22,167 bases of DNA from an archaeon (GTDB lineage: Archaea; EX4484-52; B79-G9): contig JBDRKP010000021.1 in the NCBI GenBank assembly GCA_043813875.1, positions 1 to 22,167 on the forward strand, written 5' to 3'. Made by a program: the position numbers. Below, piece by piece: positions 15,001-18,000 of the stretch. Every line of letters begins with the position of its first letter. The first letter of the stretch is position 1.

Positions 15001-18000
15001 GTTGCGACTTTGCTGCCTGATTCCAGTTCAAGGTTTTTTCTAGCATCGCCTGCGATTTTTCCGCCTTTTTTTGCGGCGATTTTGTTTTCTATGAAGCCTT
15101 GTGAGTCTTTGTTTTTTGCGATTTCTGTTGTTGACGCTTCTCCAAGCATTGAGAAGATTAATTCAAGGTCGGTCATGTGGTCTCGAAGGTTTTCTTTTTT
15201 CAGGTTCTTGTATTGTTTGTATTCTTCGACTGTCTTGTCGAATGTTGCTTTTGTGATTTCGTTTGTCAGTATTGCGTATTCTATGTTGTTATTCATTCCT
15301 CTGTTCTTCCATTCTTCTGTCAGTTCCTGTCTTATCGCTATGCCTCTTAGGCGTTTGTCTATCCAGTTTTTTGAATAGCCTTTTTGCTCGTAGAGATGTT
15401 TCATGCGAACTTGTGCCAGTTCGGGATCTTCTATTTCCTGAACCCGTTCATATCCTACTTTTGCGAGCCATCTTTTGAATGGCTCTGCTTTTTTTGACGG
15501 GATCGACTGGATTATACGGAACATGGATTCTGTGCTTGCGCAGTCTGTATTCCTTAATTTTCCATCCGGAGCTTCTAATTTCAAAGGGTTACATATTGTA
15601 ACCAGTTGATTTTCTCTATGCTTTAGAACTTTCCAATAATTACGAGAATCAGGACTGTCTGTCAAAACAGCTACAGTGTCAACTACAGAGAAATACCATT
15701 CGTCCTTGTGCCATATTCTTCTAATATGTTTTCCCTGAAATACTACCAAAGCATCTTTTGAGTCCATCTTATTACGATATTGGTTTTAAGAATATATATC
15801 TAATTGGTACATTGTGCCGATAGGATTGTTTTTGTTGCAAAGTGCATTTCTGACGGCTGAATGCAAAATGTTTCCAAAAGGCTTATAAATTTTTGTGATT
15901 ATTTATATGTTATATCGTTGTTATCTTATCGTGATGCCAATGGATTGGAAATGCGCTTGACGGATTTTGAACCTGATTTTCCTATCCTTAAGTATCCTGG
16001 TTATCAATGTTTTCTTTCTTTAGTCCTGCTTTTCTGGCGCCCGTTCTTTTAGGTTGTTTCTGGTCTGGTTATCTGGAAAATTATGAAAATGTTTGTCTGT
16101 TTTTTGTCTGTTTACTGTCATGTATGTTCTGAAATCGACAACAGTCGCAGTTAAATATATAAAGCTGCCTGTCCCTAAATTGATTGGTGATTTTGAATGG
16201 GTGGATACCTTTGGCGAGGAAAATATTAAGAATGTAAAATTAGGGCAGATTGTTCCCATATATAAAAAGACCAAGGGGCTTGGGTGCCCGGTGGAGTTCT
16301 TTGCCAAGCTCTCTGATTATGGCAGGAATCCGCATTGCCTGCTTCTTGAGTCTGCAAGCGTCTCTGCGAAGTATGCGCAGTTCAGTATGGGTACCGCTGC
16401 ACCGTGCCTGAAGATTTCGGGACGTGGCGATGATTTTGAGATCATTGCGCTTAACAGTCTTGGCGAGCGTTTTCTTTTGTCTATCAAGGATGATCTTTCG
16501 TTTTCTGATTCTCTGAAGTACGGGAAAGACAGGATTACAGGCAAGCTGAAACCGGTGCGCAAGAAAGGGATAAGTGAGGAGGAGCGACTCAGGCAGAAGA
16601 CGCATGTCGATATACTTCGGGTCATAGCGTTCAAGTTTCTGCCGACTTCCCGGCCGCTCGTGCCTTATGCAGGGCTTCTTGGCATGTTCTCATATGACTT
16701 CATCGACCAGTTTGAGGATCTTCCCAAGAACAGGCAGGATGTCTTAGGGACTCCTGATTATGAAGTGTATTTTGCCGATAACCTGTTCATCTGTGACCAC
16801 AAGAATGATGCCACGTATTTCATCGCGAATGCGCTTGTCTTTGATGAAGATAAAGATAAGGCCGTGGCTGAGTGCAGGAGCAAGATCGATGGATATATAC
16901 GGGTGCAGAACCAGACAGATGTACCGAAGCCGCGCAAGTACCTGAAAAAGAAGGTGCGGATAAGGAGCGATACGACAAAAGAGGAGTTCATGGATACTGT
17001 TTCCAGGATGAAGGAGCATATACTGGCAGGGGATGTCTTCCAGGTGGTTCCTTCACGGACCCTGATGGTAGAGTATAATGCCGAGCCGCTTGATGTGTAT
17101 CGCACGCTTCGCAGACTGAACCCGTCGCCTTATATGTTTTTCATAAATTCGCTTGATTCTATTCTTCTCGGGGCGTCGCCTGAGATGTCTCTTCGCGTCG
17201 AGGGAGAAAAAGAGAAGAAGGTAGAGATACGGCCGATCGCAGGGACAAGACCGCGGGGGATTGTCGACGGGAAGATCGATATGGATCTTGATTCGAAGTA
17301 TGAGATCGAGCTTAAGCTTGATAAAAAAGAGGTTGCTGAGCATGTCATGCTTGTCGACCTTGCCAGGAATGATGTCGCACGGGTATCAAAACCGGGCACG
17401 AGGATTGTCGATGAGCCGTTCATTGTGGAGAAGTATTCTCATGTGCAGCACCTGGTCTCGAATGTGAGCGGGGTGTTGAAAGATGATTTTGATGCGCTCC
17501 ATGCGTATCTTGCGTCGATGAACATGGGGACGCTTACGGGTGCGCCGAAGGTGAAGGCGATGGAGATCATCAGGCGCCTTGAAAAGAATAAGCGCTGCCT
17601 TTACGGGGGCGCTGTCTTCTATCTTACGCCGCATAAGGATTTTGATTCCACTATAATCATCCGGTCTTTACAGATAAAGGATGATGTCGCATACATCCGG
17701 TCCGGGGCTGGAATTGTCTATGATTCTGTGCCAATTTATGAGTATGAGGAGACCATCAAGAAGGCGAGGGCGTGCCTCGCGGCTATTGAGAAAACAGGAG
17801 GTGTCGAGTATGAAAATCCTGTTGATTGATAATTACGATTCTTTCACCTATAATCTAGTGGATGAGTTCGAGAAGAGGGGCCATGCTGTGCTCGTGTACA
17901 GGAACGATGCGGATATCGGCTTTATCGATAAGGTGATAAAAAAAGAGAAGCCGGGGCTTATTGTCTTGTCGCCGGGGCCGGGGACGCCAGGGGATGCCGG

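Follow-up and report, generated by a model that had tools for sequence, protein, structure and literature searches.

T-boxes and attenuators (trpL, hisL, thrL, and pheL) act on biosynthetic operons and aminoacyl-tRNA synthetases, with tRNA charging as the signal. Several recoding systems come close to the element described here. In prfB, an internal SD-like sequence is followed, after one codon, by a CUU-U slip and a slow A site, and the shift yields a product that relieves the shortage (PMC12421855). Hungry-codon +1 shifting in E. coli (Gallant) and the Ty1 site CUU-AGG-C are treated as errors or set-ratio events, and a 2016 review gives no starvation-specific trans-frame product as known (PMC5009743); a shift in pheL was reported as incidental (PMC3082878). 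For Streptomyces phages, UUA (bldA)-dependent bypassing was described in terminase genes (PMC10732093). Archaeal recoding includes the fucA1 −1 shift, magnesium chelatase, and haloviral shifts, with one −1 case and a few predicted ones reported (PMC8211752). At ATGA/TGATG overlaps, strict coupling was found in 13 of 14 pairs tested in H. volcanii and E. coli (PMC6728339), while mutual exclusion of ribosome and FttA is put forward only as a hypothesis in the FttA structure paper (PMC11616081).

The window analyzed here, the whole stretch of 22,167 nucleotides, corresponds to contig C21 in an archaeal genome (G000) of 1.64 Mb. The 16S tail of this genome, GGATCACCTCCT, is archaeal; the window encodes an archaeal-type ADH synthase and a DHQ synthase II, and the closest named trpE relatives bear the label Ca. 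Nanohalarchaeota. We infer that the host phylum is GTDB EX4484-52 (Caliditerrarchaeota), a non-halophilic sister of Nanohaloarchaeota according to a preprint (bioRxiv 10.1101/2025.08.05.668663) in which the word “frameshift” occurs 0 times; PMC9765267 is relevant to the lineage only. Order and phylum give an identical set of 42 genomes in eight families, all of them fragmentary MAGs (57–96% complete).

The window carries a trp operon preceded by a short SD-led uORF (ATG GGT GGA TAC CTT TGG CGA GGA AAA TAT TAA) that overlaps trpE. The features of this region are as follows:

16156..16163, + strand, TATA-like box TATATAAA; five genus loci have a similar box at equal distance
16186..16191, + strand, SD (GGTGAT) of the uORF AUG; pairs with the 16S tail of its own genome, GGATCACCTCCT, at −9.7 kcal/mol
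16197..16229, + strand, putative sensor uORF of 10 codons (MGGYLWRGKY*), 0 frame
16200..16204, + strand, internal SD-like GGTGG, 4 nt 5′ of the P-site codon; −7.1 kcal/mol with the 16S tail
16201..17829, + strand, trpE in the +1 frame (NCBIfam anthranilate synthase I)
16206..16208, + strand, E-site codon TAC
16209..16212, + strand, putative slip site CTT-T (P-site CUU to UUU); four bases identical to those of prfB
16212..16214, + strand, putative sensing (A-site) codon TGG (Trp); TGG in nine of nine trpE loci read in the phylum
17681..18409, + strand, trpG ORF as listed; family match from residue 44–46
18406..19416, + strand, trpD
19406..20206, + strand, trpC
20203..20823, + strand, trpF
20820..22004, + strand, trpB

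The initial annotation had described this site as an SD-led AUG uORF that runs into GGT GGA TAC CTT TGG, with trpE in the +1 frame, and re-reading gave the same result, also for the other cassettes named in this genome. Going by archaeal promoter spacing, the transcript presumably starts near 16180–16187. The SD of the uORF stands at register 16, within the range usual for the genome (14–17). MGGYLW is conserved in six of six genus loci, while the stop shifts between 9 and 21 codons past GGT; the cassette itself was seen again wherever a genus locus had upstream DNA (six of six), as well as in G020 and G021. Like prfB, the trpE site combines an internal SD-like sequence, one codon, a CUU-U slip sequence, and what would be a slow A site. 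The trpE frame, described in the initial annotation as having no SD-led start of its own, continues open upstream in this genome and contains TTG 16093, ATG 16120, and TTG 16180. Of these codons, TTG 16093 and ATG 16120 precede the TATA-like box; in the five other genus loci the trpE frame is shut 3 codons above the GUG. This GUG (GTG at 16201, within the internal GGTGG) is a rival start; it holds the position of the outgroup start, with an ATG within −2 to +5 codons in 53 of 70 outgroup loci, as reported before. The earliest ATG inside trpE is at 16387 (residue 63), and family models begin earlier, at residue 30. No cassette was found at the head of the aro/tyr/phe operon of the window. The contigs of one RNA run (share 0.07) leave the stretch from 15900 to 17472 uncovered.

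A pattern that leaves the A-site codon and the neighboring gene free (ATGGGTGRAYRY) matched 134 times in the 42 genomes, compared to 23 times for the reversed control. A total of 124 matches were read; the other ten comprise an AACAT row and nine AACAC rows of the kind that, where read, proved to be a single conserved antisense site of rRNA-like sequence. The matches read include 32 within genes, 16 antisense, 12 in a palindromic repeat, seven at an rRNA-like site, 16 without the geometry, and 41 non-coding matches with a 0 frame of 5–35 codons and a longer +1 frame. In 39 of these 41, the fifth codon specifies the amino acid of the neighboring gene, where cimA and cysK are named from scores below curated cut-offs and unscanned neighbors by likeness to scanned ones; the cognate pairs are Trp with trpE, Lys with dapB, His with hisG or hisS, Ile with ileS or cimA, Thr with thrS, and Cys with cysK or with a gene in the cys cluster that resembles ParB_N (Pfam match at E 5e-5, short of the cut-off). 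The two non-cognate matches are L013 and L180, and one true Thr site (L134) was removed by the antisense filter. Match L131 (His codon, G007) is a chance match at a gene end. A looser pattern gave >1000 matches, 150 of them listed, and was left out of all counts. A separate loose scan of G000 found a Thr cassette ahead of thrS (C23:9915). The earlier list for this genome was thus incomplete, as this cassette and all tRNA-synthetase sites were absent from it; its six biosynthetic operons all stand, within a wider scope of seven amino acids that covers biosynthesis genes and synthetases (Thr, Ile, and His).

We catalogued 91 sites and dropped two as non-cassettes (G007 dapB at −356 and G008 his at −194), leaving 89 sites in 32 of the 42 genomes. 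Three SD-less variants (G018 trpE and the hisG genes of G018 and G020) and six Cys sites lie beyond the catalogue; with these nine, cassettes occur in 33 of 42 genomes and five of eight families, none being found among the genes read in families f2, f6, and f7. Counted gene by gene, over loci with upstream DNA, a cassette precedes trpE in 9/9 (family f1 plus five searched handles), dapB in 8/8 within the genus, cimA in 5/5, proB in 3/3, hisG in 8/9, cysK in 10/17, thrS in 15/28 (archaeal type 6/9, others 9/19), ileS in 12/35 (300–700 nt read upstream, and just 47 nt at one locus), and hisS in 4/30 (cassette up to 1.5 kb away, with hisS often further down the operon). None was found at ValRS (0/19; 20 loci fetched), LeuRS (0/9; 10 fetched), or leuA-like paralogues (0/2). 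Among sites reported previously, the Lys cassette of all eight genus genomes (+1 frame 42–93 codons), the Pro cassettes of G004 and G029, and the His cassettes of both G004 copies were seen again, and the Ile cassette was found in G004–G007. The Cys cassettes of G001, G004, G005, and G015 are likewise real and lie at the ParB_N-like gene, not at cysK; the Cys variant proposed for G037 was not recovered on re-reading. 

Searches beyond the phylum used the pattern ATGGGTGRATRYHTTNNNNNND, for which 15 of 17 matches inside the phylum are cassettes. Among 401 genomes sampled from the phylum of a Nanoarchaeota-labelled record, this pattern gave 32 matches, with cassettes in 0 of the 30 loci read, and among 119 other archaea, cassettes were found in 0 of 12; these 520 genomes were covered by one pattern that SD-less forms would escape, and sister phyla were not targeted. 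No cassette was found at 71 outgroup trpE loci. A tandem-His pattern run on JGI metagenomes gave 15 loci, of which one (L440) is real and 14 are unrelated, mostly tandem repeats.

The layout of the cassette, its cognate codon, its frame relations, and its conservation can be read directly from the sequences. GGT-GRN is followed by a YRY codon, a slip-prone codon, and a codon of the pathway's amino acid; the latter is a sense codon in all 89 sites and varies synonymously (ACA/ACT, CAT/CAC, TGT/TGC, ATT/ATC, and CCC/CCT). The +1 frame is the gene itself at 19 sites, a leader of 24–104 codons at 60, and a second cassette at 10. The P codon, left free in this count, is CTT (35), TTT (21), CGG (12), ATT (10), GTT (6), CTC (2), CGA, AAT, or GAT; the form XYY accounts for 84 of the 89 sites and 31 of the 34 gene-by-genus units, against a share of 0.35 among the remaining uORF codons. 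The E codon, also left free, conforms to YRY at 85 of the 89 sites and in 33 of the 34 units, against 0.11 elsewhere in the uORFs; p-values on such counts overstate the case because the genomes are akin. An XYY codon would retain its middle anticodon pair after a +1 slip. ARAGORN found 15 tRNAs at default settings, none of them identified as reading CUU, CGG, or CUC; the loosened setting gave noise. The P codon stands at SD register 14, which ranks among the top two for starts in this genome (81/391). The SD is therefore not unusually close, unlike that of prfB, and may pause the ribosome rather than push it; the internal GGTGR is absent from the three variant sites.

Upstream, no AUG lies within 16 codons at three sites (G004 cimA, G017 ileS, and G022 ileS). 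Tandem His cassettes are spaced by 16 nt (three loci) or 19 nt (seven loci), are in +1 register in 10 of 10, and are followed by an AbrB/MraZ-like ORF (a weak match) and usually by a third cassette; the two spacings may stem from one event. Leaders are open, whereas shuffled sequences are so in only 0.05–16% of cases, and 55 of 60 end ≤15 nt from the next ATG (26 with an ATGA overlap); four g3 ileS leaders stop 34–36 nt short. Most genes behind the leaders carry their own SD. Concealment of this SD by structure was considered and not found (21 of 55 less accessible than shuffles in predicted structures). 

Judged from these arrangements, the best reading, and one we regard as highly probable, is that the cassette senses an amino acid in cis, through programmed +1 frameshifting that starvation triggers at a hungry codon; it would be prfB-like in layout and do the job of T-boxes or attenuators. 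Ribosomes would begin at the SD-led AUG of the uORF and, with charged cognate tRNA plentiful, would read on to a stop a few codons further. With cognate tRNA scarce, the ribosome would pause while its A site stays empty; the internal GGUGR would then pair with the 16S tail next to an E-site codon that holds weakly (YRY), and the peptidyl-tRNA would move by one base. The new frame would then be the enzyme itself (19 sites: trpE, cimA, proB, and some cysK and hisG), the 0 frame of the next cassette (at the 10 His tandems, which would require two shifts), or an open leader of 24–104 codons ending on the next gene's start (60 sites). Because the leader ends on that start, the gene would be reached by termination-reinitiation and would probably be spared premature termination. 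What we infer from this layout is that the shift takes place, that starvation governs it, and that the SD and the E codon act as described; the proposed switch held in tests that left the tested feature free (A codon and neighbor; P and E codons). It also forecast unlisted sites, found at ThrRS (of two architectures), IleRS, and HisRS, genes outside those used in building the pattern. The term “gate” fits best at the 19 direct-entry sites and less so at the 60 leader-type sites, where the off-state could reflect either aCPSF1/FttA polarity or dependence on coupling. Since T5 tracts are enriched in leaders and an aCPSF1 gene is present, termination in the untranslated leader would be the likeliest off-switch, with dependence on coupling as the alternative.

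The main rival dispenses with a slip and takes the GUG in GGUG as the start codon of the +1 frame, used de novo or by reinitiation after the uORF stop or after drop-off of the short peptidyl-tRNA at the hungry codon. This GUG does lie at the ancestral trpE start, where 7 of 70 outgroup loci have GTG or TTG (−1 to +2), and GGT is in place in 87 of 89 catalogued sites, in a search that demanded [GA]G[TC]G[AG]. The GUG has an SD of ≥4 nt in the usual register at 17 of 75 sites, including g1 thrS and f8 cysK, where the E codon is deviant too; the AUG has one at 62 of 75, against a genome background of 339/894. Four sites without the GUG retain the layout, which removes this rival at those sites: G018 trpE (ACT AAC TAT CTC TGG) keeps the AUG and the +1 frame, with stops just upstream and the first GTG 27 codons inside; G018 and G020 hisG read CCC CAT; and G031 cysK (GGC GAA TAT TTT TGT) adds a fourth to the three GUG-less sites of the initial annotation. 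That annotation had also denied these hisG genes an AUG, but G018 hisG has an ATG, 8 codons inside the conserved N-terminus. A GUG start would leave the XYY and YRY codons unexplained, and the 0-frame stop lies anywhere between 6 and 33 codons away, depending on the site (9 to 21 in trpE). Moreover, a ribosome stalled at the cognate codon would hide the GUG, and ribosomes that reinitiate once they have terminated normally would turn the genes on in amino-acid plenty, the wrong direction. We consider initiation at the GUG unlikely.

Alternatively, the shift may be real but run at a fixed ratio and damp expression, without sensing. Ty1-type sites with CUU before a rare codon shift at a set rate (PMC5009743), and pheL illustrates that leaders of amino-acid operons can contain a shift that is merely incidental (PMC3082878). 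A fixed ratio gives no reason for the match of A codon and pathway in 39 of 41 free matches and over seven amino acids, and several A codons are common in G000 (AAA 45 and ACA 26 per 1000); we hold this possibility to be very improbable. Slightly less probable still is classical attenuation, in which a stall at the cognate codon would alter RNA structure or access to a terminator and the open +1 frames would be incidental. Its support comes from the aCPSF1 gene and from T5 tracts, which are present in 29 of the 43 short leaders, compared to 152 of the 414 intergenic stretches and 12% of windows within coding sequence. However, the cassettes have a single cognate codon in a fixed place and no attenuator-type run (a second cognate codon occurs at few Ile sites only), seven loci gave no Rfam family match at the gathering score (T-box model included), and no alternative hairpins were found in a search that was not systematic. 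Attenuation also leaves unexplained the 19 enzymes entered only via the +1 frame, the +1 register of the His tandems, and leaders open up to 104 codons. Chance, assembly error, or pseudogenes might be suspected in fragmentary MAGs, yet 134 matches against 23 in the control, one layout across 33 genomes and five families, and 0 cassettes among 42 matches read from other archaea speak against them; their probability is negligible, and conservation has already refuted them. Two further candidates were considered. The idea that slipping results from missing m1G37 or failed ribosome rescue found no support, as a Trm5/TYW2-family gene and two eRF1_1-family genes are present in five of five genomes. 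Transcriptional slippage was rejected because the sites are without a long homopolymer; it would also give no tie to one amino acid.

With frameshifting at the hungry codon as the preferred reading, comparison to the described systems shows where the cassette departs from each. The likeness to the bacterial RF2 shift site claimed at the outset extends to the layout and to CUU-U at trpE (CTT-T in genus g1), but CTT-T or TTT-T occurs in 9 of 89 sites, most having other XYY codons, and re-pairing would be poor at 15 of 89 (CTC-T, CGG-A, CGG-T, and CGA-A). The A site of prfB is UGA, whereas the cassettes carry sense codons of seven amino acids, many P codons, and an SD (GGUGR) with one extra base ahead of the E codon. 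Cassettes are also archaeal, occur at many loci per genome in leader and tandem forms, and precede genes for biosynthetic enzymes and synthetases rather than RF2; having sense A codons and neither stop codon nor RF2, the cassette would work like prfB without being a member of that family. With hungry-codon shifting and Ty1, it shares a putative +1 slip at a slowly decoded sense codon after a slip-prone P codon, but the cassette codon is matched to the pathway. By analogy, targets and presumed signal are those of T-boxes and attenuators, while the output would pass through a change of frame. UUA-dependent bypassing is the nearest recoding at a sense codon that senses tRNA supply, but it is a bypass at a single rare codon, tied to developmental timing in phage and not to amino-acid homeostasis. 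Known archaeal cases demonstrate that archaeal ribosomes shift frame; these are mainly −1, in single genes, and not known to involve amino-acid sensing (PMC8211752). As in termination-reinitiation pairs, leader ends overlap the next start, but the upstream frame of the cassette leader has no start of its own.

The cassettes are real, far beyond chance, and more widespread than first noted. Searches of the open-access literature showed no description of the system, while subscription papers and supplements of frameshift surveys could hold single sites; on this basis, the novelty lies in the regulatory system, and the slip would be a prfB-type variant. We think it likely, with somewhat less assurance than for the sensor itself, that this small-genome (probably DPANN) phylum maintains amino-acid homeostasis through a modular frameshift code, in which a portable cassette can be re-addressed to any pathway by one codon, serves at least 10 genes, among them those for tRNA synthetases that differ in architecture (two types), and occurs in stacks of two or three (His and Cys) to sharpen the response. 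Cassette-led genes would then be mis-annotated at present, with wrong starts and missed leaders. As the element has about 30 bases and a one-codon address, a single reporter series would suffice to probe it, and it could be reused as a biosensor. If the reading is true, archaea have a translation-level amino-acid sensor, suggesting that SD-stimulated +1 slipping and ribosome-protected transcription are at work in archaeal cells; next to T-boxes and attenuators, the cassettes would stand as a third general solution, one in which +1 shifting at hungry codons is put to natural use, and starvation-induced frameshifting, long studied as an error, would become a selected regulatory device.

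A conserved AbrB/MraZ-like protein of 84–104 residues is encoded by the +1 frame 3′ of the His cassettes, and its synthesis would require a prior frame shift. The open reading frame was read at two places:

L148, 304-585: AbrB/MraZ-like ORF after His cassettes
Source genome G000, contig C65, 382-708: AbrB/MraZ-like ORF after His cassettes

Matches to Pfam MraZ (E 6e-5) and in the atlas (0.81) provide no more than a lead to the identity of this putative AbrB/MraZ-like product. The Ile leader of genus g3 is also a conserved ORF, of 102 codons, which stops 34–36 nt short of ileS and presented no Pfam match:

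L151, 1108-1425, minus strand: Ile leader ORF of g3 (also at L022, L024, and L149)

Three cassette uORFs lack an AUG; possible starts read from the sequence are a CUG overlapping the upstream stop for cimA of G004 (L428), GUG or AUC for ileS of G022 (L250), and UUG for ileS of G017 (L256). An in-frame TAA adjoins the start of both ileS in G029 (L238) and thrS in G018 (L416); error, decay, and a shifted start are candidate readings.

No cassette was found at the head of the large aromatic cluster in the window, in which ORF 967-2592 is a fusion of an aspartate-kinase-like domain and an ADH synthase:

Window, 255-10482: aro/tyr/phe cluster

Judged by eye, the coding strands of G000 seem to be either A/C-rich or T/G-rich depending on the contig (C40, C43, and C61 versus C1, C21, and C65), a pattern suggestive of strong replication-strand bias. 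Intergenic stretches of genus g1 contain a recurrent short palindromic repeat (core TTCGAAATGGGTGA(A/G)CATTTCGAA; 12 copies among the cassette-pattern matches read), which appears MITE- or REP-like:

G000, C5:6672, C20:14520, C26:8424, and C77:34274; loci L189-L197 and L010: g1 palindromic repeat

Two serial Cys cassettes precede a ParB_N-like gene in G005 and G004 (L459, L461); in G004, the +1 frame of the first cassette passes through the second, in frame with this gene. Upstream of cysK, a palindrome, ATAACA-N-(T/C)GTTAT, adjoins the TATA box (loci L385-L391 and L394-L396). This palindrome, present in genomes both with and without a Cys cassette, is a candidate operator of a cysteine regulon.
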